Assembly (NCBI GenBank): GCA_964512995.1
Contig: CAZELM010000019.1
Location: forward strand, 12,406 to 76,405
Origin: an uncultured bacterium
GTDB taxonomy: Bacteria; CSSED10-310
Direction of reading: 5' to 3'
Length of the DNA stretch: 64,000 nucleotides
The notes beneath the pieces were generated by a model that worked only from the letters and a program-made list of their open reading frames with translations, was not told where the DNA came from and made no database searches. How positions within the stretch are numbered: position 1 is the stretch's first letter; the number at the start of each line of letters is the position of its first letter. The translations under genes were made by a program, and so were the position numbers. This document shows positions 1,296 through 41,108 of the stretch, in pieces.

Positions 1296-1555
1296 TCCCC
1301 CTGATCGACCCACTCAGGAAGCCCTGAACCATCTGTGAACGCAGCGGTGGATTCGCGACACATCCATCAAACCATCCGACACCGGGAATCGCTCGTCTGA
1401 GTCCACCGCTCCCTGCTCCCAATACCCCAGATCTTAGAGCCTGTTTGCAAACTCATCTTTGTTTGTGGGTGTAGAGGGGAATCGGGTAGCACCATTTTCG
1501 CGAATGCGGGAATTTCAAGGGGTTCCAGGAGATCTCCGCTACACCCAAACCATCA

Positions 1556-5545: not shown

Positions 5546-5760
5546 AATCCCCACCTTGTCACCCCGTAAATCTGGAAATAATGGTTAAAAACCAACTATC
5601 CATCTCATGTTCATTGAATTGCAGCCTGGAAACAGATTGAAGATAATATATTCAACGAGCGTTTTTAGATGAACAGCATTTTCTTCATAAATTATATATT
5701 GTGATTGAGGGATGTCAAATGGCGGACATGTCTGGGAGATGAAATTCGCAAACCCATCGT

Positions 5761-6324
5761 TCAGAGGATTCGAATGGACGCCATGATCTGATCTAACTCT
5801 TTCTCGTTCTTGTACTTTCCTTTGCCCGGACCGGAAAAACTGAATGTGAATATGAATCTGGGAGTGATGACGATGTATATCCTTGCCTGGCAGCGATAGA
5901 CATATCCATCTTCTGTACGGACCAGAAGATAGGATGCCCGGAGGTAAAGGGCTCTGTATCCTGCAAAAATGACATTTTCTTCCCGGTTCAGTATTCTCAC
6001 TCCCTCAAATGTGTCTTTGAGACGCGTCACACACTGTTCCAGTAATGGCCGATAATCCATTCGTTCCGCAGAGGTATTGATGTAAGCTACGGCCTGGACG
6101 GTTGGATATACCTCATCATTGCTGTCATGGTAATCTGTTATATAAAATATCGGTTTATTGCATTTTCGTAATATTTCAATAAATTCCTCATCATTTTGGA
6201 ACGTTTCTTCTTTCGAGGCGGTTGCCCATGGAACTGGAATGAAGTGCCACGAATCCGGTTTAACGAGCGTCAACCCGAGATAAGGATTGTCGTAGGTATT
6301 GCCCCTAATAAACTGCATGCTCAT
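5761..6324 (-). CDS. Hypothetical protein (187 aa)
   Basis: Clean ORF with no recognisable motif. Confidence 0.45.
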   Translation of the reverse strand: MSMQFIRGNTYDNPYLGLTLVKPDSWHFIPVPWATASKEETFQNDEEFIEILRKCNKPIFYITDYHDSNDEVYPTVQAVAYINTSAERMDYRPLLEQCVTRLKDTFEGVRILNREENVIFAGYRALYLRASYLLVRTEDGYVYRCQARIYIVITPRFIFTFSFSGPGKGKYKNEKELDQIMASIRIL

Positions 6325-11488: not shown

Positions 11489-11828
11489 GTGTAATACCGA
11501 TGTTCGATTAAAAATGAGTGAACAGTATCCTGCATATATGCCTCTCGCCATTCATGGAGAGGGGTTGGGGTGAGGTCGTTTCTCATTTGAATCTTCTCCC
11601 AGTCGATCATCACTCCCCGAAATTATCCCAAACCGCTTCAGATATCAATCCTGGACCGCCCTGCCCATTTCGTTTGACGGTCAAGCAAGATTCCACTACG
11701 ATCGGAATGGCCTCCGAAAACCGGCTGTCCGGATGTGGTCCGGCAAACCAAACCATCATTGTGAGCGCTCATTCATGTTTTTTTTACCTCTCCAATTCAT
11801 CGGATTTCTTAAAACTTTTTTATTGGAG

Positions 11829-12494
11829 ATGCGTTTATCCGATCGACAGGGGGCATCCGGGAAAAAACGGGTCCATCTGAATGATCTCCAGGAGTTGCCG
11901 GATGAACAATTAATGGCCATGTACGCCTCAACCGGAAACAGTGTCGCATTTGAATGTCTGATGAACCGCTATCAAACACAGATTTATGGATTCCTGGTCC
12001 GCTCCTGTCAGGACCGGTCGGCAGCGGAGGATTTGTATCAGGAGACGTTCATCCGGGTGATCAAGGCAGCTCCTACCTATCGCCCGGCCGCAACATTCCG
12101 GACCTGGATTTTTACGATCGCCCGGAATCTGCTGATTGATTTCAGGCGCAGACAACGCACCCGCATCATCATGGTCGCAGAAAATCCTTCCGGAGACGAC
12201 ACGGCCGGGGACAGTCCGGACCTGCCGTCGACTCATACCGAAACAAATCCGGACCAGATGCTGGAAGCAGTGGAAATGCGTCGGATACTGAACGACATCA
12301 TCGATCAGTTACCAGAGGAGCAGAAAGAGATGGTATATCTTCGGGAGCAGGTGGATCTCGATTTCCAGGATGCTTCAACGATCGCGGGATGTTCGGTCAA
12401 TACCGCCAAAAGCCGGATGCGCTATGCCCTGATCAAGATCCGGGAGGAACTGATCCGGAGAGGCATTTTTCCTGGAAGGAGTTCGACCGTATGA
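11829..12494 (+). CDS. ECF-type RNA polymerase sigma factor (sigma-24 family)
   Basis: Region 2 reads DLYQETFIRVIKAAPTYRPAATFRTWIFTIARNLLIDFRRRQ and region 4 reads VYLREQVDLDFQDASTIAGCSVNTAKSRMRYAL. Confidence 0.8.
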   Translation: MRLSDRQGASGKKRVHLNDLQELPDEQLMAMYASTGNSVAFECLMNRYQTQIYGFLVRSCQDRSAAEDLYQETFIRVIKAAPTYRPAATFRTWIFTIARNLLIDFRRRQRTRIIMVAENPSGDDTAGDSPDLPSTHTETNPDQMLEAVEMRRILNDIIDQLPEEQKEMVYLREQVDLDFQDASTIAGCSVNTAKSRMRYALIKIREELIRRGIFPGRSSTV

Positions 12495-13591
12495 GCTGTT
12501 CCAGATACCAGCAATGGATCATCGACTCGATCTACGGAGAAATTTCTGCCCGAAACGCCAAACGCCTGGCGAGGCATCTATCGACATGCCCCGACTGCCG
12601 GGCGGAGATGGAGTCCTTGCGTCTCACTCACCAGATGATCCGGGAATCCCATCAACCGGAGATCCCCCCGGAAGCGATCCGGCACACTATTTTGCAGCAG
12701 GCGCAATCATTCGTTCCACAAAAAACCCGATCCCGATGGCTCCGGCCATTGCCTGCTTCTCTGGCTGCCGCCGCACTCGTGGTTGCAATTACAGGCGTGT
12801 ATATCCTGCATTTCCAGCCGGCATCGATGCTCTACTCGTCCCGAACAAAGGAATATGGGTTGTCTCAGGCTGTCAAACAAGAAGCCGCGGAAATGGATAA
12901 ACAGGATGGGTTACTTGAAAAAGGGGATCAGAGCATTGCTGAAGAAAAGTCCGCACCCGCTCCGAAGCCTGGCGGTGAAGGCGGTGCATCTCAACCGATG
13001 GATTCCGATGCGATGCCCGAAGTCGCCCCGTCCGATGAAACAGCACCTTCCATGTTGTACACCCAGGGTGATACCACGATGCAGAACCGACTGGCGCCAG
13101 AGCCTATCGATCAATCGATGGCTCCGCCCGCTTCTCTGTCCGAAACACGCAAATCCAAATCCATCGCTGTTCGTGAGATACCGGCATCCGAAAAAGAAAC
13201 CACGGGAGTCAGCCGCAATGAATTGCCACAGGAACACTCTCCGATCACTCGGATGTTCGAGGAACCCGGTCCGGAGATGCTGTCCGTCCAATCCCGGATC
13301 ATCGCTCAGGTGGCACCGCATCAGACCGCTCCCGAGATCATCCATCAGACCGAACCCGTATATCCGGAAGAAGCCCGTCGTCAACGGATTCAGGGAACCG
13401 TTGAATCACAAATCGTTGTGGATGAATCCGGTCATGTTCAGGAGTTGAAGATCAGCAGTTCCACGAATGCCATATTCAACAACGCTGTGACTGAAGCGCT
13501 CGTGAAATGGACATTTCGGGCAAGCAGAATCAATGGTAAGGCGTCATCCTGTGAGATGACGGTGATCACGGAGTTCTCGGTGAAACAGTGA
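12491..13591 (+). CDS. Anti-sigma factor (zinc-finger, single TM helix) fused to a TonB C-terminal domain
   Basis: ATGA overlap with the sigma gene. HLSTCPDCRAEM is a zf-HC2 motif. TM helix LAAAALVVAITGVYILHF, then an acidic/Pro-rich linker. The C-terminus EPVYPEEARRQRIQGTVESQIVVDESGHVQELKI is TonB_C-like. Confidence 0.6.
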   Translation: MSCSRYQQWIIDSIYGEISARNAKRLARHLSTCPDCRAEMESLRLTHQMIRESHQPEIPPEAIRHTILQQAQSFVPQKTRSRWLRPLPASLAAAALVVAITGVYILHFQPASMLYSSRTKEYGLSQAVKQEAAEMDKQDGLLEKGDQSIAEEKSAPAPKPGGEGGASQPMDSDAMPEVAPSDETAPSMLYTQGDTTMQNRLAPEPIDQSMAPPASLSETRKSKSIAVREIPASEKETTGVSRNELPQEHSPITRMFEEPGPEMLSVQSRIIAQVAPHQTAPEIIHQTEPVYPEEARRQRIQGTVESQIVVDESGHVQELKISSSTNAIFNNAVTEALVKWTFRASRINGKASSCEMTVITEFSVKQ

Positions 13592-13608
13592 TGCGGCTGG
13601 CTGGAGCG

Positions 13609-14265
13609 TCAATCGTTTTGTTTTAACATTTTTTCCACTTTTTTATGATTCTCTGTCAGGCGATCCTGTAACTCGATCCGCCAAAGCTCTGCGGATTCGG
13701 CGGAATTACCCTCGGGAACGGGAATCGGTTCCTCGTCGAAATAGATGATCACCGGCGAGAAGGGAAGCGGCAGATAGGTCTGGCACCAGGTTTTCCGGAA
13801 CACGAAACGCCAACGGGCGCGTGCGGTAACCGTGATCAGGGGGACTCCGGTTTTCTGGGCCAGCAGAATGACACCGGGCTTCGCTTCATGGCGTGGTCCC
13901 AACGGACCATCGATCGTGATCACGGCACTGGTTCCCTCCCTGATTTTTCGGATTAACTGGACCAGCGCCTGTGCGCCTCCTCTGGAACTGGATCCCCGGA
14001 CCGTCTGATATCCCATTTTTTCAAGCGCATAGGCGATGAGATCCCCATCATTCGATTGACTGACGAGAACACAGTAGGACTGATTGCGATTTGGGCCGAG
14101 TAGCGTCAGATCATCTTCGTGCCAATGACCGATCACGACCGGTGTTCCATGAAACCGGCTTCCCGGTGCTTTCGGATTGTTGATAAACCGGGTCCGATAG
14201 GTCATGGAATACAGCCGATAAAACAAATACAATCCATGTGCAAGCATCCGTTTCCAGGTATTCAT
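13609..14265 (-). CDS. DUF374-type lysophospholipid acyltransferase family protein
   Basis: HWHEDDL (HX4D acyltransferase motif). ATGA overlap with the upstream adenosine deaminase. Confidence 0.55.
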   Translation of the reverse strand: MNTWKRMLAHGLYLFYRLYSMTYRTRFINNPKAPGSRFHGTPVVIGHWHEDDLTLLGPNRNQSYCVLVSQSNDGDLIAYALEKMGYQTVRGSSSRGGAQALVQLIRKIREGTSAVITIDGPLGPRHEAKPGVILLAQKTGVPLITVTARARWRFVFRKTWCQTYLPLPFSPVIIYFDEEPIPVPEGNSAESAELWRIELQDRLTENHKKVEKMLKQND

Positions 14266-15299
14266 GACAAGCCCCTCCCCAGGATTGATTCCCATTCCAT
14301 TTCAAATTCGTTCATCAGCCGGGATTTCATTTCCGGCGGCAGGAACGATGCCCTGACTCCGTTCAGACTCATTTCTTTGAGTTCCGGGAGTTCGAAATGC
14401 AAGTCGTTCATCAGCGTCATATATTCCGAATGGATGGACGACTGGAACATGCCGGGATCATCGGAGTTGATGGTCACGCGGAGTCCCTGATCGAAATAGC
14501 GTCGGATGGGGTGTGTTGCAACCGAATCCCAGACGCCGGTCAGAATATTGCTGATCACGGATATCTCCAGAGGGATCTGATGGATCCGGAGATACGTGAT
14601 CAGTTGAGGATCCCGGTATGCGTGAAGGCCATGACCGATCCGTTCCACCTGTAAATCCAATAACGCAGACCAGATGGACTCCGGACCAACGGATTCGCCG
14701 GCGTGTGCGGTAAGCCGAAACCCCCGCCGCTGTGCTTCGCGATAGACATCAGCAAACGGTGACGCCGGATAATGGTGTTCCGTCCCTCCGATTCCGATGC
14801 CGATCACGCCATCATCCCGAAAGGGCGTGACCTGATCCAGAACGATAATGGCGTTATCCGGACCGAAATCGCGGACCAGATCGACGATCCAATTCGATTG
14901 GATTCCGAAATCCGCAGCGGCCGCCGTTCCCGCTTCAATCAGGTTCTCGGTGATACCGGTGATACTGAATCCATTGGGCTCAAAATCGGCCGGGGAGTAG
15001 AACAGTTCTGCGTATCTGACATTCTGTGCATGAAGCATCTGTAATGTCCGATAGGCAATCTCCCTGAAATCAGACTCCCGCTCGATAAACGTGTTTTTCC
15101 ATGTCCATCGCAGCAGGAAGTCTTCAAAGTCAGAATATCGGAACCGGGCTTTGAGGGATTCGAGATCGTGAATACGTTCCCGGCCGCTTCGCTGAATCAG
15201 TCGAAGGAGTGTTTCCAGAGGAATGGCTCCTTCCAGATGAATATGCAGTTCGACCTTGGGGATCCGGGAAACCAGATTCTGAATCGCATCTTTCATGCT
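14262..15299 (-). CDS. Adenosine deaminase family protein
   Basis: PKVELHIHLEGAI near the N-terminus and SDDPGMF near the C-terminus are the metal-binding motifs. Confidence 0.75.
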   Translation of the reverse strand, partial: SMKDAIQNLVSRIPKVELHIHLEGAIPLETLLRLIQRSGRERIHDLESLKARFRYSDFEDFLLRWTWKNTFIERESDFREIAYRTLQMLHAQNVRYAELFYSPADFEPNGFSITGITENLIEAGTAAAADFGIQSNWIVDLVRDFGPDNAIIVLDQVTPFRDDGVIGIGIGGTEHHYPASPFADVYREAQRRGFRLTAHAGESVGPESIWSALLDLQVERIGHGLHAYRDPQLITYLRIHQIPLEISVISNILTGVWDSVATHPIRRYFDQGLRVTINSDDPGMFQSSIHSEYMTLMNDLHFELPELKEMSLNGVRASFLPPEMKSRLMNEFEMEWESILGRGLS

Positions 15300-15345
15300 G
15301 AATCCAATCGGGTTGATTCGGGAGCCGTTCGTTCCGGAAGCCGGC

Positions 15346-17403
15346 TCATTCATGCCATCCGAATTCGAAACTGTCCCAATCACCGATCAATCCGGAGATA
15401 TTCTTATCGGTCATGGCGGCATGCCAGTAGATATGTTCCGCCTTACCGACACCCGTCGGCCATGTGAACGGCTGAAGAATGCGGATGACCGTCTCCCCTT
15501 GACTGATATCTTTGATGAAGTAGTCGTAACCGGAAAAAGATGGCGCGAAGAAGTAGTTCCCATATACATCCAATACAACAAAAATGGGGATTCGAAGATA
15601 TATTTTATCATCCGGATTACAGACACTGACATTGCAGTAACAGGAATCTCCGGGTCCAAAATCATGACCGGGCATGTCGATTTTACACCCGAGCGTGTCG
15701 CAGACTGGTGTTTCAGTGGGAGGCTCCGGCGTGTTCGTGGGGGTTGGCGTGCTGGATGGCGATGGAGTGGCAGTGGATAGAACGGGAGTCGATGTGATCG
15801 TTGGTGTGACGGTTGGTGTGGGAGTGGGATCCGGCCGATCGGTCAGCCAGACCACGAATTGGCGCATGATCCCATAAAATTCATCCGGATCAGCCGCACC
15901 AATCTCCAGTGTGGAAAAGATGGACTGAAACACATCGGTTGTATAGGAGATGGCGCAGGGAGCGGCTCCAGGGATTTCGATCAAGGGAAGAGCGCCCGGA
16001 ACCGGGACAAGCGTATCGGGATACAGGTTGGAGGCATGAAACGGCCCCCCCGTCGACGATCCATTCACAACAAAGGATAATCCATCCAGAATGCTTCCAT
16101 CCGAACCAGATGCCTCCACAACCTCTGCATTAGCCACGGAATCCTGTATCACTGAAGCGATCCCCAGATGCGTATTGAAGAAACCGGTTGCATTTCCCCA
16201 ACCCGAATGACTCCCCCACAGGATATCCTGTCCGATCATGATCAGACGCCCTCCGGAATCCAGGTAGGACATCAGTGCAACTTCGTCCGATTCTCCCAGG
16301 TTCCCCGGAGTTTCGTGATAGTTTTCGCCGGCCAGAACGATTACAATATCATATTGATCACGAGAAAATGGAACCGGCCACGGGATATCTCCGCCGGTGG
16401 GAGCATAAATGATATCCGAAACGATCCCACCCATATTTGTCACGGTTTCCGCATACGATGGTCCGGGATCCCAGAATCCGGGGTCTCCGTCGATATCCAC
16501 AGCGATCAATACCCGGAAATCTCCAGGCAGCATCGTCGGGGTGGCGGTTGGCGTCTCAGTGGGTGGCCGGATGGTCGGGGTGGATGTCGGAGGAACCGGA
16601 GTCGATGTTGGAGGGACAGTGGGGAGTGGTGTATGGGTATGAACCGGCGTGTTTGTGGAGACTGGCGTATATGTGGGAGTATTGGAACCTGAAGTCGGTG
16701 TCGGGGAAGGATCGGATTGAATGGCATATAATTCAAATGCATGATCCATGGGAGAACTGTGTGGGGTCCAATCCGTATATCCGACTTCCGGAAACAAGGT
16801 CAATCCGGAGCAAAGCTGAACGGGTTCAGATGTATTCACCCAGCCGATCTGTGGGCGATAATCCATTACGGCCTGAATGACCATCCAGTAATGCGTATCG
16901 GTCTGTGGCACAAACGGCGGATCCAATCGTGCCCAATAGGAGTACAGCTCCCGCTGATCCGTACAATACAACGTCTCATGACAATCGACCGCATCGATTT
17001 CCCATGTAGCCGCTGCATTGCTGGGATAGCAGTCATTGATATTGTTGTATATGAATATGTTCCATGAAGTCGGCGAAATATAGGGTGGAGCGCCATTAAA
17101 CTCACCCGCCCACCACCTAACACAGGTAATCGTGCCGGGTGCTTCCTCAAACATGAAATCGTCCGCAGACCGTGCGTCAAACAATGATCCGGATAAACTC
17201 AATTGAGATGGAAAAAGAGCGATGTTTCTGCAATCCGGATTCTGAGCCCACACCAGATCTCCATGACATTCCAGCACGGTGCTCATTCGATTTCCAGATT
17301 CCACATTCACTGGCACGGAACTGTCTATGTTCTGGTCCAGCGCCAATCCTGAAACAGCACCCACAACCAACAGAAAAAGCAGCAACGATGATGCCGTTCT
17401 CAT
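15346..17403 (-). CDS. Secreted multidomain protein with two Pro-Thr linkers; unassigned globular domains
   Basis: Signal peptide MRTASSLLLFLLVVGAVSG after an AGGAGG Shine-Dalgarno; PT-rich stretches; no confident domain call. Confidence 0.55.
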   Translation of the reverse strand: MRTASSLLLFLLVVGAVSGLALDQNIDSSVPVNVESGNRMSTVLECHGDLVWAQNPDCRNIALFPSQLSLSGSLFDARSADDFMFEEAPGTITCVRWWAGEFNGAPPYISPTSWNIFIYNNINDCYPSNAAATWEIDAVDCHETLYCTDQRELYSYWARLDPPFVPQTDTHYWMVIQAVMDYRPQIGWVNTSEPVQLCSGLTLFPEVGYTDWTPHSSPMDHAFELYAIQSDPSPTPTSGSNTPTYTPVSTNTPVHTHTPLPTVPPTSTPVPPTSTPTIRPPTETPTATPTMLPGDFRVLIAVDIDGDPGFWDPGPSYAETVTNMGGIVSDIIYAPTGGDIPWPVPFSRDQYDIVIVLAGENYHETPGNLGESDEVALMSYLDSGGRLIMIGQDILWGSHSGWGNATGFFNTHLGIASVIQDSVANAEVVEASGSDGSILDGLSFVVNGSSTGGPFHASNLYPDTLVPVPGALPLIEIPGAAPCAISYTTDVFQSIFSTLEIGAADPDEFYGIMRQFVVWLTDRPDPTPTPTVTPTITSTPVLSTATPSPSSTPTPTNTPEPPTETPVCDTLGCKIDMPGHDFGPGDSCYCNVSVCNPDDKIYLRIPIFVVLDVYGNYFFAPSFSGYDYFIKDISQGETVIRILQPFTWPTGVGKAEHIYWHAAMTDKNISGLIGDWDSFEFGWHE

Positions 17404-17902
17404 GTATAACCTCCTTCGCTTTCGAATAACCAAACAAAACAATCACAGGTTGATTAAAACCCTTTAATTTCAATAAATCTTACCATAATTGATTACTTAA
17501 TGTCAAAATGGAATTGGTTCATGGCATCGCCTGACTTCAAACAGAATGCTTTTAATTCCAATATGTTCCGGTTTGATGAACCGTACGGGAGTGGCTCTGC
17601 GACCGCATCTCCACACAAAATGAGAATGAGCCTGATCTTCGGTATCCATGCCGGATCAACGGTAATGCTCAAATTGACAACCGGAGATGCTCCCGATATA
17701 CACTTCACTTGCCTTTTTGTTGACGATTGCAGAAATCCTTTATCGGAAAATGGAGAGCAATTGTAGAGATGTCATGCAGCCTGAGATCATTTCCGTTGTT
17801 TTTTTCAATGGACGGGTACACCCGGGATTATCGGCCAATCTGTGGGCTCGTGGCCATAGTGGTTCACTATCCAAGTGAATTCCTCTCGACAAAGGAGCGA
17901 TC

Positions 17903-19771
17903 ATGAAACGCTGGGGAATGTTGTTTGCTGCTGTCATGGGACTGATTGCCGGCTACCATACGATTCCCGGTGGTATGGTTTCCGATGATTATGTACTCAT
18001 GGCAGTGACTCCGGACATCCCGATGGCTTCCATCCTGACATCCAACTGGCTCGGTGTGCGGGGAGAGGGTGGATTTTATCGGCCGCTGGTTACCCTTGCC
18101 TGGAAATTCGATTATTTACTCTATGGAACCAATCCCCGAGGGTACCATGTTACAAACGTGATATTACACATTTTGGTAACAGTACTGGTATATTTTCTCA
18201 TTTATCAATTCCATGAGGATATCTGGATCTCCACCATCAGTGCCTCCCTGTTTGCTCTCCATCCCGTACATCATGAAGCCATCGCGTGGATCAGCGGGCG
18301 GACCGATTTGCTTGCGGCATTTTTTTATCTCCTGAGCATCACGCTCTTTATCAGATTTCGGTTCCAACAAAGTATGAACCGGATGATTCTGGCCATCTCT
18401 CTGCTTTGTGGTGCGGCAGCGATGTTCTCCAAAGAAATGGCATGCACTCTCCCCTTCACAGTCGTCATGGCCGACTGGCTGTTGAGCCGGAAGCATGCAG
18501 TACCCAGGCGATTCAGTGCTGTTCTTCCCTACTTTATGCTCCTCTTATCAATTCTGGGAATTCGGTGGTATGCGTTGGGCGCTTTTCTGGGAGGGTATGG
18601 AGCGGGAAAACATCTGCGGACCGATTCCGTGATATTCTACTATCTCCTGCAATATTTCGAATGGATCATAGAACCGCTTGGGATTTATGCCAGTCACGGC
18701 TCGATTACCTGGATGGTCATCGCTTCATGTTTTCTGCTTCTGTTTCTTTGCACGTTTTTATCTCCGCCATACCGGGCGGGAGCATTCTGGTTCTGGATCA
18801 CAATGATGCCAGCCATCAATTTGAACCGGATGCAATATTTATATCTTCCATCCATCGGTATTGCGTGGGTGTTGGGGATATTGATCCGGAACGGGAGTTG
18901 GTCCAGCCGATCCATCGCGGGCAATGCCACCCGTGTGATCGTCATCTCCAGCCTGTTGATTGCATATGGAACGGTAACCATCGAAAAAAACAATGAATGG
19001 ACATATATGGGGTGGATGGGAACCGGAGTGCAGCGTGTGGTTCAATCGCTCTATCCAACCCTGCCGGACCACACGCGAATGGTGTTCATCAATCCTCCAT
19101 ACAGCCAGAAAATAAAGTTCGGCATATTTCAGAATGGTATTACGGAAGCAGTCCGGAAATGGTATGATAATCGAACGCTTACAGGATTTCGAGTCCCGGC
19201 AGCCGCTCAGTTTAAAAACTTTGACAAAAGTCAGGATGTTGTGTTTGAGTTCGACAACGAAAAAATCAGTGACGTCACCGATTATTTTATTTACGGAAAA
19301 CCGCATATCGTCTCCTGGCCCGGAATTCATTTCAAATCGTACATCATGAAAGCCGGGGATGTCCTGGACCTGAACGGTTCGGGAAGACCTGTCCGGAGCA
19401 TCCTAATCGACTCCCAACTATCCAATGCCACAGCCATCCGGCAAGGAACCCCTGTGGCGGAACTGTGCGTGACATATCCTTCCGGGGAGATGCAGACCTG
19501 GCCGATCCAGGCCGGCATTCATACATCCGAATGGGCATACGACCGGGCGGATGTCCGTCATGGCATCCAGCATCAGAGGGCACCGGTTCAATACAGCTAC
19601 ATTGCTGGAGATGTCGATTCCGACCCGATTCCCGGTCATATCTATCGCGCCCGTTTTCTGCTCGATCAAGCAAAAACGATTACCCGATTGAAGATCATCT
19701 CATTGCTTGATAAAGAAAGTCCTGGAGACGCGGTTCCATGTCTCGATATCCGTGGGGTATCCGAGGAGTAA
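17903..19771 (+). CDS. Integral-membrane glycosyltransferase, PMT/GT39-like (DUF2723/TMTC-like N-terminal module) with a soluble C-terminal domain
   Basis: FYRPLVTLAWKFDYLLYGTNPRGYHVTNVILHILVTVLVYFL resembles the first loop/TM2 signature of PMT-family mannosyltransferases. About 11 predicted TM helices. AGGAG Shine-Dalgarno upstream. Confidence 0.6.
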   Translation: MKRWGMLFAAVMGLIAGYHTIPGGMVSDDYVLMAVTPDIPMASILTSNWLGVRGEGGFYRPLVTLAWKFDYLLYGTNPRGYHVTNVILHILVTVLVYFLIYQFHEDIWISTISASLFALHPVHHEAIAWISGRTDLLAAFFYLLSITLFIRFRFQQSMNRMILAISLLCGAAAMFSKEMACTLPFTVVMADWLLSRKHAVPRRFSAVLPYFMLLLSILGIRWYALGAFLGGYGAGKHLRTDSVIFYYLLQYFEWIIEPLGIYASHGSITWMVIASCFLLLFLCTFLSPPYRAGAFWFWITMMPAINLNRMQYLYLPSIGIAWVLGILIRNGSWSSRSIAGNATRVIVISSLLIAYGTVTIEKNNEWTYMGWMGTGVQRVVQSLYPTLPDHTRMVFINPPYSQKIKFGIFQNGITEAVRKWYDNRTLTGFRVPAAAQFKNFDKSQDVVFEFDNEKISDVTDYFIYGKPHIVSWPGIHFKSYIMKAGDVLDLNGSGRPVRSILIDSQLSNATAIRQGTPVAELCVTYPSGEMQTWPIQAGIHTSEWAYDRADVRHGIQHQRAPVQYSYIAGDVDSDPIPGHIYRARFLLDQAKTITRLKIISLLDKESPGDAVPCLDIRGVSEE

Positions 19772-19782
19772 ATAGTGAGCTA

Positions 19783-21213
19783 ATGAAAAAAAAATCCCGT
19801 GTTTTATTGATTCTTCCTTATTTTCAGAACCGCCGGCATTATGGGAGCATGTCCAAGGTCGCGCCATCCCTGCTTCCGGTCAGTCTGGTTTACCTGGCTG
19901 GATACCTGGAACGGGAATCCTATCCCGTGCGTGTGTTCGATGGGCAGGTGGATCCGATGACGGAGTCCAGCATCGGGCAGGTATTGCGGGAATTTCAGCC
20001 GGATGTTGTGGGTATTACCTGTATGACGCCCATGGTTACAGAAACCCATATGGTCGCTCAAATCATCAAATCCATGAATCAGCGGATCACTGTTGTGGTC
20101 GGTGGCATCCATCCCAGCATACTCCCCGATGAAATCATTCAGGATACAAATATCGATGTGATCGTCCGGGGAGAAGGTGAAATCACCTTTCATGAACTCC
20201 TGGAACAATACCCGGACGGCAAACTGGGAACCATTCAGGGTATTACATACCGGGAAGGAGACGCGGTTGTCCATACTCCCAACCGACCACTCCTGAATGA
20301 CCTTGACAGCCTGCCCATGCCAGCCCGTCATCTGGTGAATTATGAAGGGTATCATCAGATTCCGGATGCCGTCTTCGCCGAACCCATGCGTGAAATACTC
20401 ACCTCCCGGGGTTGTCCATTCAGATGTATCTTTTGTTCTGCCCGTCTGATGTCCGGATACCAATACCGCTATCATTCTCCGGATCGGGTATTGGAGGAAG
20501 TGGATGTGTTGGTGAACCGGTATCATGCCCGACAGATCGCCGTGCTGGACGATAATTTTGTGGTCGATCGTCAGCGCACCATCGACATCTGCGAACGGCT
20601 GCTCCGGAAGAATTACCACAAACGGCTGGTCTGGACGACCGCGGCCCGAGCCGATCAGGTTGATCTCGAACTGCTCAAGCTGATGAAGGAGGCGGGATTT
20701 GCATTGATTTCATTTGGTGTGGAGACCGGCTCACCCCGGCTCCTGAAAATGATTCAGAAAAATGAGACGATGGATCAGATTGCCCGGGCGGTGGAGTGGT
20801 CTCATCAGGCGAGATTGAAAGTCCGGGGAACGCTGATACTCGGGTTGCCCACCGAAAGCGTGGAAGAAAGCCGGATGACGATCGAGTGGGCGAAGAAACT
20901 GAAACTGGATTTTGCCAAATTTTCATTGGCAACGCCTTATCCAGGGACTGTTCTGTTCGATATTGCGAAACAGCAGGGTATCGAAATGAACGACTGGTCG
21001 CACTTCTCGTCGATGGCTGGTTTCGCGGACTATGATCCGGTGTTCGTACCGGAAGGACGGGATGCCAAAGAACTGGCAAACCTCCAAAAACAGGCCATGA
21101 AGGAGTTCTATTTCCGTCCGAAACAAATCTACAATCTGCTCCGCAATATCACATCGTTCAATGACATCAAGATGTTTTATTATGGAGCCAGATCGGTTCT
21201 ATTCAAGGGGTAG
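19783..21213 (+). CDS. B12-binding-domain radical SAM enzyme (class B rSAM)
   Basis: N-terminal Rossmann-like B12-binding region (VGITCMTPMV...VVVGGIHPS), then CPFRCIFC (CxxxCxxC). The start lies 12 nt after the glycosyltransferase stop. Confidence 0.85.
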   Translation: MKKKSRVLLILPYFQNRRHYGSMSKVAPSLLPVSLVYLAGYLERESYPVRVFDGQVDPMTESSIGQVLREFQPDVVGITCMTPMVTETHMVAQIIKSMNQRITVVVGGIHPSILPDEIIQDTNIDVIVRGEGEITFHELLEQYPDGKLGTIQGITYREGDAVVHTPNRPLLNDLDSLPMPARHLVNYEGYHQIPDAVFAEPMREILTSRGCPFRCIFCSARLMSGYQYRYHSPDRVLEEVDVLVNRYHARQIAVLDDNFVVDRQRTIDICERLLRKNYHKRLVWTTAARADQVDLELLKLMKEAGFALISFGVETGSPRLLKMIQKNETMDQIARAVEWSHQARLKVRGTLILGLPTESVEESRMTIEWAKKLKLDFAKFSLATPYPGTVLFDIAKQQGIEMNDWSHFSSMAGFADYDPVFVPEGRDAKELANLQKQAMKEFYFRPKQIYNLLRNITSFNDIKMFYYGARSVLFKG

Positions 21214-21215
21214 CA

Positions 21216-22313
21216 ATGTTCAAGATCACCACCCTGTATCAAAAAATCAATGACCTGCATGCCGCTCTTCCCCGGCGATTCGGCAAGGGTTACGCTCTGC
21301 CGCCGTTGCGGGTGGGCTGTGTCTTATCTCACCGGTGCAATCTGAGATGTTCGATGTGCTTCGTCTGGAAGCGAGGCATCACCGGACTGGATAAAAGGGA
21401 ACTGAGCACGTTGGAATGGCTTGGAATCATCCGCCAGATCCCATCCTTCGCCATTGTGACCTTTACCGGAGGAGAACCGCTGATCCGGCCGGATATCCGG
21501 GAATTGCTTGCTGCGGCATCCCGATCTCACCGCGTTCATCTCGTTTCAAACGGCACGATGTTCCAGCCTCAGATGATCGAGTATTGCCTGAGTCTGGCTC
21601 CCCGGAAAATCTGGGATAAGGGACTTCTTTCTCTGGGCATTTCTCTGGAAGGTCCGGAAGCGATCCATGATGCCATGGTTAAAATACCCGGTTCTTTTGC
21701 AAAAACCATTCAGGCTCTGACTGATTTTGCGACCAGGAAACGGCAACTCGGACTGAAATACCCGCTCCTCGATATCAAAATTGTGATCTGCAACGAGACC
21801 ATTGGCTCCCTGACGGAACTGTATGAGATTGCAGATAATATCGGAGCAGATATTATCTCCTACCAGCAATGCTCCACTCAGGAATCGTCCTATGGTATTG
21901 ATGATGCACCAATGGATGCGATGTACACATCTCCTCCACCGGTAGATCCCATTCCGGAAGATGTGATCAAAGAATCGATCCGGAAGTTAGTGAATCGAGC
22001 CGCTGCCGGGCGAACGACCCTGCGATTCAATCCGGACATGTCAGCGGATTATTTTGCAGACCGCTATCAGAACCGGTTTCCTCTGGATCGGTTCGCATGT
22101 TCCGCCGCATGGAGTGTCATGCATATCGGGCCGTATGGAACGGTATATCCCTGTTTTTCGATCCCGATGGGCAATCTGCGGGAGAAAAGCCTGATGGCGA
22201 TATGGAATGGTCCGGAATACCGTGCATTTCGAGTCAAACTCCAAAAACACGACATTTTCAAGGGCTGCACCGGATGCTGTGTCATGAAACCGAAAGCATC
22301 TGCCAAGCAATGA
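21216..22313 (+). CDS. Radical SAM / SPASM-domain enzyme
   Basis: CNLRCSMC near the N-terminus and a Cys-rich C-terminus (C...PCFSIPMGNL...GCTGCC) typical of SPASM auxiliary clusters. It starts 2 nt after the previous stop. Confidence 0.8.
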   Translation: MFKITTLYQKINDLHAALPRRFGKGYALPPLRVGCVLSHRCNLRCSMCFVWKRGITGLDKRELSTLEWLGIIRQIPSFAIVTFTGGEPLIRPDIRELLAAASRSHRVHLVSNGTMFQPQMIEYCLSLAPRKIWDKGLLSLGISLEGPEAIHDAMVKIPGSFAKTIQALTDFATRKRQLGLKYPLLDIKIVICNETIGSLTELYEIADNIGADIISYQQCSTQESSYGIDDAPMDAMYTSPPPVDPIPEDVIKESIRKLVNRAAAGRTTLRFNPDMSADYFADRYQNRFPLDRFACSAAWSVMHIGPYGTVYPCFSIPMGNLREKSLMAIWNGPEYRAFRVKLQKHDIFKGCTGCCVMKPKASAKQ

Positions 22314-23344
22314 ACATCAAAAAGCTGATACATCGGACTCCCCGGCAACTCCTGAATACGATTCGGATACGTTATGGGAGATGCATACAACCGGAATGCC
22401 GGCACGATCCATCGGAGATCATGGTGTTCGTCACCAATCGCTGCAATTTCACGTGTTTTACATGCCCTTTCAAACAGCAGTCGCCATACTCCCCGCCAGA
22501 CAATATCCCGGATATATCACACATGCTGTTTGGAGAAATCCTGGACCACTATTCCGGTGCGTCTGTGATCGGGATCGTCGGTGGAGAGCCTTTGTTGCAT
22601 CCGGAACTGGAAGCATTGATACGGATTGGAGCGGATCACCGGATGACCGTAAATCTGTCCACCAATGGATCGCTCCTGACAACAGACCGGATCGGCCGGT
22701 TGCTGGATACGCCGCTGGGATTCCTCAATATTTCACTGGATGCGGCTACGGCTTCGGAGTATCAGCGCGTTCGCGGCGGATCTCCCGAGCTATTTTCCCA
22801 CATTGTCGAAAGTGCCCGTCGATTCACCGAACTGCGAACAAAAGTCTCATCACCCATAAAGCTGCTGCTCAGCTTTGTGACCGACCAGCACAATGTCATG
22901 CAGATACCGGATTTCGCCCGACTGGCTCTGGATATCGGAGCGGATCAGGTTTTCTGTCAGACGATTCTCTCGTATCAATGCTCCACGATCACTTCTGGGG
23001 CTGGTACGCTGAAAGATACTCCGGAGATGCGAACGGTTTTGAAGAATCTTCCGTTGCCATCCGGGATCTCGATTGTATTGCCCAAGCTCGTTCCCATCTC
23101 GGACTGTCGATGCGCTGATTGTATTCACCCGTTCACATCGCTGGCACTCGATGGCGCCGGCAATCTGTCGCCGTGTTGTGTCATTCCACCTCATCCCCGA
23201 TATGGGAATCTTGCGGAAGACATCCAGGCATGGCGACATGGGGTGGCCATGAAAAAGATCCGCAATGGAATCTTATCGGATACCGATGCATTTTCGGATA
23301 TCTGTCTGGATTGCTGGGAACGATTCTCCCTGAGAGGGGATTGA
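22310..23344 (+). CDS. Radical SAM / SPASM-domain enzyme (paralogue of the previous gene)
   Basis: CNFTCFTC rSAM motif and a C-terminal CRCADC...PCCVIPP...CLDCWE SPASM-like region; ATGA overlap with the previous gene. Confidence 0.8.
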   Translation: MNIKKLIHRTPRQLLNTIRIRYGRCIQPECRHDPSEIMVFVTNRCNFTCFTCPFKQQSPYSPPDNIPDISHMLFGEILDHYSGASVIGIVGGEPLLHPELEALIRIGADHRMTVNLSTNGSLLTTDRIGRLLDTPLGFLNISLDAATASEYQRVRGGSPELFSHIVESARRFTELRTKVSSPIKLLLSFVTDQHNVMQIPDFARLALDIGADQVFCQTILSYQCSTITSGAGTLKDTPEMRTVLKNLPLPSGISIVLPKLVPISDCRCADCIHPFTSLALDGAGNLSPCCVIPPHPRYGNLAEDIQAWRHGVAMKKIRNGILSDTDAFSDICLDCWERFSLRGD

Positions 23345-23556
23345 TCGTCGATTGTGGCAAATCACCCGCCGGTCCGGGCAGCACCGAACATACTCCGTCG
23401 CTGCCTTGCTCATCAGAAGGCCACACCAGAGCTAATCCACCCCTTGGCTTTGCAGAAGCACCCTTTTAAATAGAGGATTCCGGCAGGTTCCCACCTCCTG
23501 AATGGTTACAAAAAAAACATCCGCTCCGAAAACGATTGGAATCATCAACCAATTAC

Positions 23557-23585
23557 TTGACTATTTCTGTCAGGTATGATATTAT
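23557..23585 (+). promoter_or_regulatory. Near-consensus sigma70-type promoter (TTGACT, 17 bp spacer, TATTAT)
   Basis: Read directly from the sequence. There is no long ORF downstream before the terminator. Confidence 0.45.
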
Positions 23586-23592
23586 TTAAGAG

Positions 23593-23778
23593 ATCCTGGT
23601 CAAATGGCCGACTGACAAGAAGGGCGGAGATCAGGATGAATTATCTGGAACGGTTACTGTAATCGTTTCGGCTGGTGTGCATAGCACATGATTATTGTGA
23701 CAATTTCCATTGTCGCAAACCCCCAAAACCTCCTTTTACCCTTCATTTCGGGCCCGTGCCAACGGGCCCATTTTTTTC
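23593..23778 (+). ncRNA. Candidate small transcript (~185 nt) bounded by the promoter and terminator; function unknown
   Basis: It contains only tiny ORFs (MAD*, MNYLERLL*); the 42-codon ORF starting at 23688 runs through the terminator and is discounted. It is flanked by 23557-23585 and 23750-23777. Confidence 0.3.
23750..23777 (+). terminator. Rho-independent terminator
   Basis: gggcccg tgccaa cgggccc followed by a T7 tract. Confidence 0.65.
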
Positions 23779-23791
23779 AGGGAACAGGTGA

Positions 23792-24313: not shown

Positions 24314-24753
24314 ATATCCTCCTATTCTGACTGTTTTTCCGACTCCCGATTCCTGAATGCAACCAAGCACCGATGTGGAGCAGGATACGGAATATTATTT
24401 AAAATGAGGCTCAAATCTGATGCACTATATCGGATTTTCTCTGGAATTCAAATCCGTTCGACCGGTGAAAATGAATCATGACGCTGACGGATAACTTTTT
24501 CATGAGCTGGGGTCAGCAAAAACATTTTAAAGTTATCCACCAATTTTACGTGATATTTGTCTTTATTCGAGAAAAATGATATCCTCTAAATAGTAATTTT
24601 CAGATTGATCTTTTTTGCTGGTGAGTGTTCTTCGGTTTATTACGAGGTATTAGTACTGTTTTCCAATTCGAAACAATATCCAGACGATTTTGTATCTTGA
24701 CACCATAACGTTAGTGGAGGAGCGATTTGACTATGTTCAAAAGGAGGCAAAAG

Positions 24754-27135
24754 ATGTTTACACATTTGACTGCAACGCGATGTCTGGGAGTGACTGCAAT
24801 CTGTGCAGCATGCATCTTGAACACCCATGCCGCGGCTGAGATGAGAGATGGTATGTTTCCATTATTCAATGCAAGGATTGATACTGCCAGGCTGAGTTTC
24901 CCAATTTTCGTATCCAGCGGAGAGGTTAATGGAGATGAAAATCAGGATTTAGCCGTAATTGAATCTGCGAGAGATACTATATCAATCCTTCTCGGCAATG
25001 GAAACGCTGGATTTCAACCAGCGATCACTTTTGGCACTGGAGAATATTCCTCATCCGTGGCTATCGGGGACTTAAATGGGGATTGCAATGCCGATCTGGC
25101 CATCGGTAGTTATTATAACTATCCTATCTCAATCTTTCTTGGAAATGGAGATGGCACATTCCAGGCAGGCGTCAATTACGAAGCAGGCTCCAGTCCCCTT
25201 TTCGTATCCATTGCGGAGTTCAATAACGATAGCAATCAAGATTTGGCAGTGATTAACTTTGGAAGCGATAATATATCCATTCTATTTGGTAATGGAGACG
25301 GGACATTCCAGGCAGCGGTCCACTACGCAACTGGTGAAAATCCCATGTCTGTATCTATCGGGCTGTTTAATGATGATGGAAATCAGGATTTAGCTGTAGC
25401 GAATAGTGGAAACGACACTGTGTCCATTTTGCTTGGCAATGGAGATGGGACATTCCAGACAGCAATCAATTATGACACAGGAACTTATCCAGTTTCCATA
25501 TCCATCGGGGAGTTTAACGGAGATGGCAATCAGGATTTGGCCGTCGCTAACTATGAGAGTTATAATTTCTCAATTTTTCTCGGTAACGGAAGAGGGGAAT
25601 TTCTTCCAGCGGTTAATTATAGCCTTGGGGAACAACCATATGCCATAACTATCGGTGAGTTTAATCGAGACGGGAATCAGGATATCGCAGTGGTGAGCTA
25701 TAACAGTAATAATATATCCATTCTCCTCGGCAACGGAAGCGGCGAATTTCTACCAGTAGTCAATTACGATGCAGGATATGATCCATATAATATATCCATC
25801 GGCGAGTTTAATGGTGACGGTACTCAAGATTTAGCCGTGGCGAATTATAGCAGCTATAATGTCTCAATCCTTCTCGGTAACGGAAACGGTGGATTCCTGA
25901 CAGCAACGAATTACAGCGCAGGACTTGATCCAGGCTCGGTAGCCATCGGGGAGTTTAACGGCGACCGAAATCAGGATTTAGTCGTAACAAATAATTTTGG
26001 ATACAATGTTTTAATTTTTTTGGGTAATGGTGATGGGATATTCCGGTCTGCGATTTATCAGAACGTAGGCCGCCATCCCAACTCTGTAGCCATCGGGGAG
26101 TTTGATGGCGATGGATATCAGGATCTGGTTGTAGGACTTGCGGTTGACTACAATGTTTCAATTCTTCTGGGTAATGGCGACGGAACATTCCAGACTGCGG
26201 TCAATTACGGAGTTGCAGGTGATATCAATTCCATATCAATCGGGGAGTTTAATGGCGATGGATATCAGGATTTAGCTGCAGCGATTAATTATTTTTATGT
26301 CTCAGTTCTTCTCGGCAATGGAGATGGGACATTCCAGACTGCCATCACTTTTGAAGCAGGGTGGCATCCCAGAGATATATCCGTTGGCGAGTTTGATCGA
26401 GATGGTAATCAGGATTTAGCCGTAGCGAATCTGAACAGCGAAGTTACCATCCTGCTTGGCAATGGAAACGGAACATTCCAGACACCGGTCAGTTATAGCA
26501 CCGGGAATAGGCCATCCTCTTTATTCATCGGCAAGCTCAATCGCGATGGATATCAGGATTTGGCTGTAACAAACGGGAGCAGCAGCACTGTGTCTATCCT
26601 GCTCGGCAATGGAAACGGAACATTCCAGGCACCAGTCAGTTACGGTACTGGGATAACTCCCTCGTCCGTATCCATTGGAGATTTCAATGGAGATCGATAC
26701 CCAGATTTAGCTGTCGCAAACTGGGAAAGCGACAACATGTCCATCCTGCTCGGCAATGGAGATGGCACATTCCAGACTGCGGTCTACTACGGTGCAGGGA
26801 ATGCTCCTCGATCACTGGTCGTCGGGGAGTTCAATGGAGACCAAAAACCAGATGTAGCCGTTGTAAACAATGAAAGCGACAATATTTCAATTTTTATCAA
26901 CCGCTGCCATTCAACTCAGTCTTGTGTCTACGATGGAGATGTTGATGGAAGTGGTGAGGTTACAGTAACTGACGCTCAGACGGCTTTTGGAATTGTACTG
27001 GGCTTCGGAACTCCGACACCCGAAGAATTATGTTCTGCCGATTGCAATGGCAATGGAATCATTACAGCCGCAGATGCCCAATCGATCTTCTCAACTGCTT
27101 TGGGATCGGGACATTGTATCGATCCACTCGAATAA
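24754..27135 (+). CDS. Secreted FG-GAP/VCBS-type beta-propeller repeat protein with a C-terminal dockerin-like module
   Basis: About 13 repeats of ...GEFNGDGNQDLAVAN...VSILLGNGDGTFQ...; signal peptide; AAAGGAGG Shine-Dalgarno. The C-terminus DGDVDGSGEVTVTDAQ...DCNGNGIITAADAQ fits two dockerin Ca-loops. Confidence 0.8.
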   Translation: MFTHLTATRCLGVTAICAACILNTHAAAEMRDGMFPLFNARIDTARLSFPIFVSSGEVNGDENQDLAVIESARDTISILLGNGNAGFQPAITFGTGEYSSSVAIGDLNGDCNADLAIGSYYNYPISIFLGNGDGTFQAGVNYEAGSSPLFVSIAEFNNDSNQDLAVINFGSDNISILFGNGDGTFQAAVHYATGENPMSVSIGLFNDDGNQDLAVANSGNDTVSILLGNGDGTFQTAINYDTGTYPVSISIGEFNGDGNQDLAVANYESYNFSIFLGNGRGEFLPAVNYSLGEQPYAITIGEFNRDGNQDIAVVSYNSNNISILLGNGSGEFLPVVNYDAGYDPYNISIGEFNGDGTQDLAVANYSSYNVSILLGNGNGGFLTATNYSAGLDPGSVAIGEFNGDRNQDLVVTNNFGYNVLIFLGNGDGIFRSAIYQNVGRHPNSVAIGEFDGDGYQDLVVGLAVDYNVSILLGNGDGTFQTAVNYGVAGDINSISIGEFNGDGYQDLAAAINYFYVSVLLGNGDGTFQTAITFEAGWHPRDISVGEFDRDGNQDLAVANLNSEVTILLGNGNGTFQTPVSYSTGNRPSSLFIGKLNRDGYQDLAVTNGSSSTVSILLGNGNGTFQAPVSYGTGITPSSVSIGDFNGDRYPDLAVANWESDNMSILLGNGDGTFQTAVYYGAGNAPRSLVVGEFNGDQKPDVAVVNNESDNISIFINRCHSTQSCVYDGDVDGSGEVTVTDAQTAFGIVLGFGTPTPEELCSADCNGNGIITAADAQSIFSTALGSGHCIDPLE

Positions 27136-27626: not shown

Positions 27627-27849
27627 AGGGACTTACACTGCATACGAGTAGTCCTGCTGGCTGGGGGCGTTTATTTGCACCAACCAGCCAATCCTGGTCA
27701 GCGAATGAAACCGAATGGGAATATGTTACTGAAAAAGATCGAAACATTACTTGGCAGCGAGCATCTATCCAGGAACGATCCCAGCCATTGAACCGGGTGA
27801 TTCCCCGGATGATTTTATTACACGAAAACCCAAGGAAGAGAGGAATTCG

Positions 27850-41099: not shown

Positions 41100-41108
41100 A
41101 GATCACCT

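Follow-up and report, generated by a model that had tools for sequence, protein, structure and literature searches.

Multi-component transmembrane glycosylation systems modify the bacterial envelope from the outside, as in CsbB-GtcA-YfhO for teichoic acids, the GtrA/GtrB/Gtr-type systems for O-antigen and ArnC-ArnE/F-ArnT for lipid A, in which a polytopic GT-C glycosyltransferase takes a sugar from polyprenyl phosphate and passes it to an envelope acceptor outside the membrane. The described systems contain no radical S-adenosylmethionine (radical-SAM) enzymes, whereas the operon considered here, from a 64,000-nucleotide stretch of an uncultured CSSED10-310 bacterium (contig CAZELM010000019.1; the window), has three of them (PMC8035078), behind a first gene whose product shares the GT-C fold and motifs of those systems. 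A small GT2 enzyme and a flippase-like protein are also found in distant relatives of this cassette, but the window operon itself includes neither a GT-A enzyme nor a flippase. A second point of comparison is the HpnI-HpnK-HpnJ pathway to bacteriohopanetetrol cyclitol ether, together with the calditol synthase Cds, where a radical-SAM enzyme is proposed to remodel a lipid-attached sugar (PMC13459092). HpnJ has a B12-binding domain, like the second gene product of the operon, for which it is the best-scoring named model, and in two distant relatives the cassette is joined by genes for a glycosyltransferase, an HpnA-like short-chain dehydrogenase/reductase (SDR) and a flippase-like membrane protein. 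These pathways differ in having no GT-C enzyme and no SPASM/twitch pair, and no hopanoid or tetraether genes lie near the cassette. GT-C lipid-carrier glycosylation and radical-SAM tailoring of sugars and lipids are each well known, but a conserved operon joining them is undescribed; literature searches combining radical SAM, B12 and SPASM with glycosyltransferase or undecaprenyl found nothing relevant, in keeping with a preliminary description of this stretch, made from the sequence alone, that had called the combination unfamiliar.

The cassette comprises four genes, with limits taken from the listing of open reading frames (ORFs) and from direct reading of the junction sequences:

17903-19771, forward strand: g1, 622 aa, predicted polytopic GT-C-fold glycosyltransferase, with AAAGGAG 7 nt before the ATG
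19783-21213, forward strand: g2, 476 aa, class B (B12-binding) radical-SAM enzyme
21216-22313, forward strand: g3, 365 aa, radical-SAM enzyme with a SPASM-type C-terminal Fe-S domain
22310-23344, forward strand: g4, 344 aa, radical-SAM enzyme with a SPASM/twitch-like Cys-rich end

The preferred reading, given a probability of about 45% on the basis of context, is that the radical-SAM enzymes tailor a lipid-linked sugar which the GT-C enzyme then transfers outside the membrane. It is preferred because the gene order is conserved and g1 carries the GT-C fold and motifs, because distant copies of the cassette sit in glycan-type clusters (L004, L090, L091, L092), and because the nearest solved relatives act on sugars, namely AprD4 for g2 and BlsE and DesII for g4. 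HpnJ, the nearest named model of g2, is likewise proposed to act on lipid-linked glucosamine, as a ring-contracting enzyme analogous to calditol synthase (PMC13459092), and a peptide substrate finds no support in a conserved small ORF or in space for a recognition domain. The suggestion in the preliminary description that fits this evidence best is its fallback, a lipid or glycan substrate.

The genes are tightly packed, with 11 nt between g1 and g2, 2 nt between g2 and g3, and an ATGA overlap of g3 and g4 at 22310-22313. The preliminary description had given the coordinates, the second gap and the overlap correctly but the first gap as 12 nt. Such packing is beyond chance, as the same gene order recurs in independent genomes. 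An alternative start of g2 lies at an in-frame ATG further upstream, at 19738, and position 19783 is favoured because homologues measure 475-477 aa; the start of g4 at 22310 is favoured because alignments from five other genomes open at residue 1. The public annotation of an identical contig (L093, 4308-5129) makes g4 a 273-aa protein from an internal ATG, by which the CX3CX2C motif (C45-C52) is lost. A 100%-identical copy of g3 is also present on public contigs. The GC content of the operon is 0.50-0.51, against a range of 0.43-0.55 across the window.

At least five other CSSED10-310-like genomes have the same order g1-g2-g3-g4 (L001/L002, L003, L005/L006, L008 and L010), with identities of 73-77% for g2, 60-64% for g3, 53-59% for g4 and 33-49% for g1, and short gaps or overlaps at the junctions recur with it. 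The quartet is one tightly coupled unit, as had been proposed; its adjacency is conserved, contrary to the refuting outcome named in the preliminary description, and as a quartet it is confined to one uncultured phylum. Wherever g2 identity is at least 53%, g3 adjoins the g2 orthologue, L012 being the only exception, and a comparison of three homologue lists suggests that g2 and g3 always occur together, with g1 joining them on roughly half of the contigs.

Homologues of g1 (about 32%, full-length), g2 (60%) and g3 (45-48%) are still adjacent in L004 and L090, where the genes that follow encode a methyltransferase of the UbiE type, a GT4 glycosyltransferase, an acetyltransferase resembling WcaF/WbbJ, an LPG_synthase_TM protein that is flippase-like, an SDR closest to HpnA (178 bits, under its cut-off) and a further B12 radical-SAM enzyme. 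In L091 and L092, g2 (53-54%) and g3 (42%) come after a large GDSL/Glucodextran_B protein and are accompanied by a GT4 enzyme, two more SPASM enzymes, an acetyltransferase, a flippase-like protein, a small GT2 enzyme and four to five PMT_2-type GT-C genes. The lone g2 homologue of L012 (55%) is followed by a GT2 enzyme, a Bac_transf phosphoglycosyl transferase and a GDSL protein. L090 additionally encodes, immediately 5' of its g1 homologue, two more B12 radical-SAM enzymes, a second flippase-like protein and a URO-D/MtaA-CmuA-like protein (1209-6298), the MtaA/CmuA-like match being weak at 30 bits. Proteins of the MtaA/CmuA type are corrinoid methyltransferases; the L090 protein could remethylate cobalamin, and the B12 enzymes of that cluster would then more probably be methylases.

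The first enzyme, g1, has a TMTC-like membrane core (about residues 1-383) and a periplasmic C-terminal domain (about 384-622). It has no Pfam or NCBIfam match even at a threshold of E = 10, and by sequence only a chance match to the Protein Data Bank (PDB). A database search returned 15 full-length homologues at 36-46% identity and, beyond these, hundreds of proteins bearing tetratricopeptide repeats (TPRs) that match only the N-terminal half of g1 (E 1e-31 to 1e-20, about half of the protein covered), many of them labelled at source as 'protein O-mannosyl-transferase'. In an alignment of 16 full-length sequences, at 34-46% identity to the window protein, S27-D28-D29, F58/R60/P61 (with the YRP motif at Y59-R60-P61), R133, S176-K177-E178...T182 and R309...Q311-Y312 are invariant and D135 nearly so. 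These positions match TMTC motifs M1-M4 and M7 (DD, SHKSYRP, RxD, KE(T/Q)xxT and ERxxY), which have been assigned to binding of metal and dolichyl-phosphate-mannose (PMC7801869); motif M5 (DW) is not kept as D-W in the g1 family, and W254 alone is mostly retained.

The AlphaFold2 model of g1 (mean predicted local distance difference score, pLDDT, 87.7; predicted TM-score, pTM, 0.85) agrees with this assignment. When it was compared with the PDB by Foldseek, the top 36 matches were all GT-C enzymes (E 1.7e-7 to 1.3e-3, probability 0.99-1.00), among them EmbB, AglB, ArnT, STT3, Pmt4, PglB, AftB, AftD and DPY19. As the TM-scores are only 0.27-0.43, the superfamily is established and no specific family. 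EmbB, AglB, ArnT, STT3, Pmt4, PglB and AftB take lipid-phosphate-sugar donors, and the acidic motif of the first extracellular loop (the EL1 DD of GT-C enzymes) and basic residues suited to a lipid phosphate have evident counterparts in the g1 sequence (S27-D28-D29, K177-E178, R309). From the model, with the motif-bearing loops set outside, a topology of 11 transmembrane helices with the N-terminus in and the C-terminus out is inferred. Judged by sequence and model, g1 is a GT-C enzyme of TMTC-like lineage and looks like an active one.

The label of PMT or DUF2723 family in the preliminary description holds at the level of the superfamily, by homology and fold, but not at that of the family: as no Pfam model matches, g1 is no demonstrable member of GT39/PMT or DUF2723. 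Membership of GT39/PMT was rejected on the lack of a match to PMT (PF02366) or PMT_2 (PF13231) and on a model without a beta-trefoil (MIR) domain, a TMTC-type C-terminal TPR array on the lack of a TPR match in Pfam and on modelled strands from about residue 390, and membership of the YfhO family on the lack of a match to PF09586; ArnT-type Pfam models do not match g1 either. The closest sequence relatives of the core are TMTC1-4 (CAZy GT105) and the bacterial TPR-containing 'protein O-mannosyltransferase'-like proteins. TMTC1-4 share the motifs DD, YRP, RxD, KExxxT and RxxY and the inferred 11-helix, N-in and C-out topology, but g1 has a beta-sandwich domain of about 240 aa where the TPRs stand, and DUF1736 and PMT models miss it. 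No bacterial member of this group is known to have an assigned substrate.

The C-terminal domain of g1, for which the preliminary description had proposed structure prediction, is modelled as an alpha/beta sub-domain from about residue 384 followed by a lectin- or carbohydrate-binding module (CBM)-like beta-sandwich, with a pLDDT of 88.5 when the domain was modelled alone. Searched by Foldseek, it gave nothing at E <= 0.001, and the weak matches that remained were of this same type. With the domain as query, an exhaustive phmmer search returned 493 proteins and delimited a core module of about 100 residues, corresponding to g1 residues of about 486-606 (window positions of about 19358-19720), with invariant T541, E543, W544, D547, R559 and H579 and the motif HTSEWAYDR...H.RAP. 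The module occurs in proteins of 800-1700 aa, often in two or three copies and often in tandem, and six of the nine carriers scanned have the C-terminal segment of the YfhO Pfam model. No Pfam model covers the module in g1 or in those nine carriers, and it may merit a domain family of its own. YfhO enzymes are GT-C transferases that attach C55-P-carried sugars to teichoic acids outside the membrane and are noted for putative extracellular carbohydrate-binding domains (PMC5836110, PMC8035078). The periplasmic beta-sandwich module is common to g1 and YfhO-family proteins. On sequence grounds the module marks a putative extracytoplasmic acceptor-binding role and leaves undecided whether the acceptor is glycan or protein.

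The second enzyme, g2, is by domain and motif content a class B radical-SAM enzyme, as had been described, with matches to B12-binding (PF02310, 84.9 bits against a cut-off of 32.1) and Radical_SAM (PF04055, 85.7 bits) and a CX3CX2C motif at C211/C215/C218. Among NCBIfam models it scores highest against HpnJ (222.5 bits with a cut-off of 577.6) and BchE (215.7 bits with a cut-off of 481.35), followed by RiPP (ribosomally synthesised and post-translationally modified peptide) and P-methylase models. None reaches its cut-off, and at 222.5 bits against 577.6 g2 is therefore not an HpnJ. The nearest solved structure by sequence is AprD4 (82 bits). Homologues of g2 have 73-79% identity in CSSED10-310 genomes and 33-56% across bacteria and archaea.

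In g3, Radical_SAM (55.4 bits) and SPASM (59.6 bits) are matched, the CX3CX2C motif is C41/C45/C48, and the C-terminal cysteines are at 295, 313, 351, 354 and 355, the protein ending 10 residues past the last of them. As for g2, the profile searches confirmed the domains of g3 and found no NCBIfam subfamily model at its cut-off, the best being AhbD (79 bits) and a tungsten-cofactor maturase (78 bits); the nearest solved structures are PqqE, SkfB and BlsE (30-40 bits). In g4, Radical_SAM is matched at 55.2 bits and SPASM at 18.4 bits, under its gathering score of 21.5. Its CX3CX2C is C45/C49/C52, and its C-terminal cysteines (266, 268, 271, 289, 290, 332, 335) include a CX17C with GX4C, as well as a CX2C that lies 9 residues from the end of the protein. 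BlsE (48.6 bits), DesII (34 bits) and MoaA, together spanning 33-49 bits, are its nearest solved structures. The view of g3 and g4 as two paralogous SPASM enzymes is borne out for g3, while SPASM in g4 is sub-threshold and the paralogy is distant, with 25% identity over the radical-SAM core. Orthologues of g4 (53-59% identity) are found only in the CSSED10-310 group, and a metagenome scan with g4 alone gave one true relative, already in the locus set.

Canonical SPASM domains carry the seven-Cys motif CX9-15GX4C...CX2CX5CX3C...C. As the C-terminal Cys sets of g3 and g4 are shorter than this, the two are termed SPASM/twitch-type, and their sequences leave room for at least one auxiliary cluster each, which is likely to be present. 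Radical sugar chemistry with B12-binding or SPASM/twitch accessory domains is known from AprD4, GenK-type B12 methylases, BlsE, DesII and BtrN; these enzymes differ in acting on soluble nucleotide-sugars or aminoglycosides, in secondary-metabolite clusters and with no GT-C partner, and their similarity to the cassette enzymes is low (34-82 bits).

Under the preferred reading, the cassette would join radical chemistry to a lipid-carrier-dependent, multi-component transmembrane glycosylation pathway, of which it would form the outward-facing arm. In a first step, g2, g3 and g4 would tailor a sugar in the cytoplasm, probably one already lipid-attached (on a polyprenyl-phosphate carrier or as a glycolipid). 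C-methylation or an HpnJ/Cds-like rearrangement is a plausible reaction for g2, and oxidation, decarboxylation, epimerisation or dehydration for g3 and g4. The tailored sugar would next be flipped across the membrane, and g1 would finally move it at the periplasmic face to an envelope acceptor gripped by the lectin/CBM-like C-terminal domain. The GT-A sugar-activating enzyme and the flippase would be encoded outside this operon. The order of these steps, the identity of the sugar, the molecule tailored (donor or acceptor) and the acceptor are all inferred.

Several observations weigh against this reading. The link between g1 and the radical-SAM enzymes is frequent, not obligate: orthologues of g1 occur without radical-SAM genes in L007 and L009, and L011 has the trio g2-g3-g4 followed by a TerB gene without g1 within 10 kb. 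No GT-A enzyme, flippase or nucleotide-sugar gene is present in the operon or among the window ORFs scanned, a scan that took in part of the large ORFs and showed no other glycan genes. The likeness of g2-g4 to sugar-acting enzymes is weak (34-82 bits) and mostly a matter of the shared radical-SAM core, and remoter g2 homologues have mixed neighbours (UbiA, Ser/Thr kinase, sulfatase, GT2). Jelly-roll folds are promiscuous, and the C-terminal domain of g1 had no Foldseek match at the threshold given above. Furthermore, YfhO-family members in streptococci glycosylate Ser/Thr-rich protein regions (PMC12041528), and the shared module therefore does not fix the class of acceptor. A more specific version, in which a sugar beyond ordinary metabolism (C-methyl-branched or ring-contracted and cyclitol-like) is built on the lipid carrier by three successive radical-SAM steps and installed on the envelope by the GT-C enzyme with its lectin-like acceptor clamp, is on the unlikely side.

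The alternative that survives best, itself unlikely, is inherited synteny without a shared pathway, with g2-g3-g4 as one unit, for example in cofactor or metalloenzyme maturation, and g1 as an independent envelope glycosyltransferase. It would account for the solitary g1 genes of L007 and L009, for the trio standing alone beside DUF374 and TerB in L011 and for the much faster evolution of g1 than of g2 in the same genomes (33-49% against 73-77% identity). The top NCBIfam matches of g3 and g4 are indeed cofactor and metalloenzyme maturases (AhbD, NirJ and the tungsten-cofactor maturase), and gene order in the phylum is partly inherited, as a flanking block encoding an extracytoplasmic function (ECF) sigma factor, an anti-sigma factor and DUF374 is also kept in L005 and L008. 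Against this, the gaps of 11 and 2 nt and the 4-nt overlap indicate co-translation in the window and recur in relatives, g1-g2-g3 stay together in L004/L090 at about 32%, 60% and about 45% identity with all flanks different, and the independent lineage of L091/L092 couples g2-g3 to different GT-C genes.

A role in protein or peptide maturation, in which g2-g4 would modify a peptide or a secreted or surface protein by cross-links or C-methylation and the TMTC-like g1 would O-glycosylate it after export, is held to be quite improbable. This was the framing of the preliminary description, and it draws on the fact that RiPP pathways are where SPASM radical-SAM enzymes, and many of the B12 type, are best known. 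PqqE, SkfB, AlbA and the sactipeptide and ranthipeptide synthases combine a radical-SAM core with a C-terminal Cys-rich auxiliary-cluster domain as do g3 and g4, the solved structures that g3 matches best are PqqE and SkfB, g3 also matches PqqE, SkfB and sactipeptide models, and g2 matches ApyD and RiPP C-methyltransferase models at 117-179 bits; no RiPP model nears its cut-off, however, and the SPASM Cys set of g3 and g4 is shortened. The recognition domain that RiPP maturases use to bind peptides typically takes up about 90 residues. The radical-SAM cores of g3 and g4 begin at residue 35-40 or so, which leaves no space for a PqqD-like domain, and Pfam detects neither a PqqD nor a RiPP recognition element (RRE) domain in them.

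Both small ORFs mentioned in the preliminary description exist, an 88-aa ORF at 17500-17766 and a 42-codon TTG frame at 23341-23469, the latter only as the tail of a 116-codon frame from 23119. Neither has a counterpart in the related loci L001-L092 by tblastn and blastn, and the intergenic DNA flanking the cassette shows no conservation in related loci, so that the earlier statement that a conventional leader-peptide gene is lacking stands. The cassette was consequently rejected as a RiPP cluster, having no conserved precursor beside it, no PqqD match and no room for one in the maturases; a precursor could be encoded elsewhere. The distant clusters, with their GT4, GT2, acetyltransferase, flippase-like and SDR genes, contain no peptide, protease or exporter genes, and the cassette too is without a protease or exporter. 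The glycosyltransferase gives a divided signal on this point: the core of g1 is nearest to TMTC-like proteins, TMTCs are protein O-mannosyltransferases (PMC7801869), and YfhO-family enzymes carrying its C-terminal module glycosylate Ser/Thr-rich regions of streptococcal proteins (PMC12041528), but g1 has exchanged the protein-binding TPR array for a lectin/CBM-like sandwich. Large secreted-type proteins, which had been noted as possible substrates, are indeed encoded nearby, an FG-GAP/dockerin protein at 24727-27135 and a GH113/NosD protein at 27751-30801. The glycan-type distant clusters, the lack of recognition-domain room and the unconserved small ORFs make the cross-linking of a peptide or protein less likely than first framed.

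Tailoring of the core of a membrane lipid is rated just as improbable. Here the radical-SAM enzymes would act on hydrocarbon chains or polycyclic cores by methylation, cyclisation or chain coupling (compare HpnP/HpnR, GrsA/B, Tes and the ladderane-type B12 enzyme), and g1 would add or extend a head group or be a mere neighbour. The best NCBIfam matches of g2 include HpnJ, HpnR and a 'lipid biosynthesis B12-binding/radical SAM protein', and g3 and g4 have weak matches to HpnH and to the tetraether synthase Tes/GDGT-MAS, but all scores against lipid models are far under the cut-offs (35-222 bits against 225-650). Genomic context is similarly mixed: the SDR of L090 comes closest to HpnA, OleD and a component of a sterol demethylase, and UbiA prenyltransferases adjoin g2 homologues in L014 and L015, but no squalene/hopene cyclase, polyprenyl or ether-lipid genes are found among the window ORFs scanned or in relatives of the cassette, and the GT4, WcaF-like acetyltransferase, GT2 and several GT-C genes of the distant clusters typify sugar chemistry and not chain chemistry. 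Radical-SAM tailoring of lipids is nonetheless an expanding field (PMC13459092).

Two further readings can be set aside: anaerobic sulfatase maturation, the alternative identity raised for the SPASM enzymes in the preliminary description, as no anaerobic sulfatase-maturating enzyme model is among the 25 best NCBIfam matches of g3 or g4 and no sulfatase adjoins the cassette in the window or the orthologous loci, and anti-phage defence, considered because relatives hold TerB, a toxin-antitoxin-like pair and an Avd-like IVP gene (all absent from the window), for which PADLOC gave only weak radical-SAM-core matches (pVip at 41-56 bits, PDC-M51A at 78 bits) and none for g1.

Additional genes accompany the cassette in its relatives. 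A gene of the 23S_rRNA_IVP family, which encodes a four-helix bundle, sits between g3 and g4 in at least four of them (L001/L002, L003, L005/L006 and L008), and a TerB-domain gene follows g4 in some:

L001 12412-13017: 23S_rRNA_IVP-family gene
L003 12438-13049: 23S_rRNA_IVP-family gene
L005 9299-9931: 23S_rRNA_IVP-family gene
L008 12434-13051: 23S_rRNA_IVP-family gene
L005 10988-11434: TerB-domain gene
L008 14092-14550: TerB-domain gene
L011 13583-14056: TerB-domain gene

Neither is a core part, because the window operon has neither. Preceding g1 are a ribbon-helix-helix (RHH)-type gene of 62-75 aa and a gene of 140-150 aa in L003 (7331-8004), L005 (4118-4876) and L008 (7358-8004), the latter gene overlapping the start of g1 by 4 nt in all three; the pair is absent from the window. 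The pairing of RHH and PIN-like proteins resembles an antitoxin and its toxin, with faint or weak Pfam matches for the RHH gene only. The possibility that the 88-aa ORF of the window, together with a 59-aa frame ending at the ATGA of g1, is a frameshifted version of the 140-150-aa gene was rejected, there being no similarity and no remnant. In L001 (6456-7835) and L003 (2988-7119) the cassette is preceded by a gene for a circularly permuted ATP-grasp protein, accompanied in L003 by two PmbA/TldD-type genes; none of these is present in the window. In other settings the ATP-grasp and PmbA/TldD-type families have been connected with the ligation and processing of peptides.

Upstream of the cassette, the window encodes an ECF sigma factor, a zf-HC2/TonB_C anti-sigma protein and a divergent DUF374 gene (11733-14295), a block syntenic with L005 (1356-3962) and L008 (4807-7219), and between this block and g1 an adenosine deaminase (14262-15383) and a DUF7901 protein (15346-17442). 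DUF374 and g2 are immediate neighbours in L011. Downstream, the FG-GAP/dockerin protein starts 1.4 kb 3' of g4, and a protein of like architecture is encoded immediately after a g2 homologue of 43% identity in a Zhuqueibacterota genome (L017, 11733-14468), possibly by coincidence. The window also contains an operon for an Rnf-type ion-translocating ferredoxin:NAD oxidoreductase (39332-44272, reverse strand), which fits an anaerobic lifestyle, and an OEP/HlyD/ABC-2 exporter operon (52034-58502, forward strand); both are ordinary and unrelated to the cassette. Further window genes scanned are housekeeping in nature: GidA, the adenosine deaminase, the Rnf complex, the ABC-2 exporter and ThyX.

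The spacer 3' of g4 is 447 nt long and contains three features, a folded stretch described below and two signal-like sites:

23557-23585, forward strand: good promoter-like site, TTGACT-17-TATTAT with TG, between g4 and the terminator-like hairpin
23750-23779, forward strand: terminator-like hairpin, GGGCCCGT-GCCA-ACGGGCCC then T7, found by pattern scan and direct reading

The hairpin is the first strong terminator-like site past g4 and a possible end of the transcription unit. After the promoter-like site, a stretch of about 190 nt folds into five hairpins with -69.3 kcal/mol (z = -4.3; 0 of 200 shuffles equal), which makes 23557-23780 a candidate small RNA or structured 3' region. This stretch belongs to no Rfam family at threshold and has no similar DNA in related loci. 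As no riboswitch or other Rfam RNA was found within, upstream or downstream of the operon, a cobalamin or SAM riboswitch is lacking there.

Two outcomes do not depend on the preferred reading. The module of about 100 aa common to YfhO proteins recurs in hundreds of GT-C proteins, apparently without a Pfam model, and, if radical tailoring of a lipid-linked sugar proves wrong, the cassette is still a conserved radical-SAM trio with unknown substrate that is common in uncultured anaerobes. The more specific version with three successive radical-SAM steps would, if true, make the operon the first transmembrane glycosylation system to depend on radical-SAM enzymes, and its product a new class of envelope modification. 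If the preferred reading holds, the operon would define how an uncultured anaerobic phylum arrives at envelope sugars tailored by radical chemistry, and three unnamed protein families would for the first time be placed in a functional context: a TMTC-like GT-C family with a YfhO-type beta-sandwich, the widespread HpnJ/BchE-like clade of B12 radical-SAM enzymes and the small SPASM/twitch clade.

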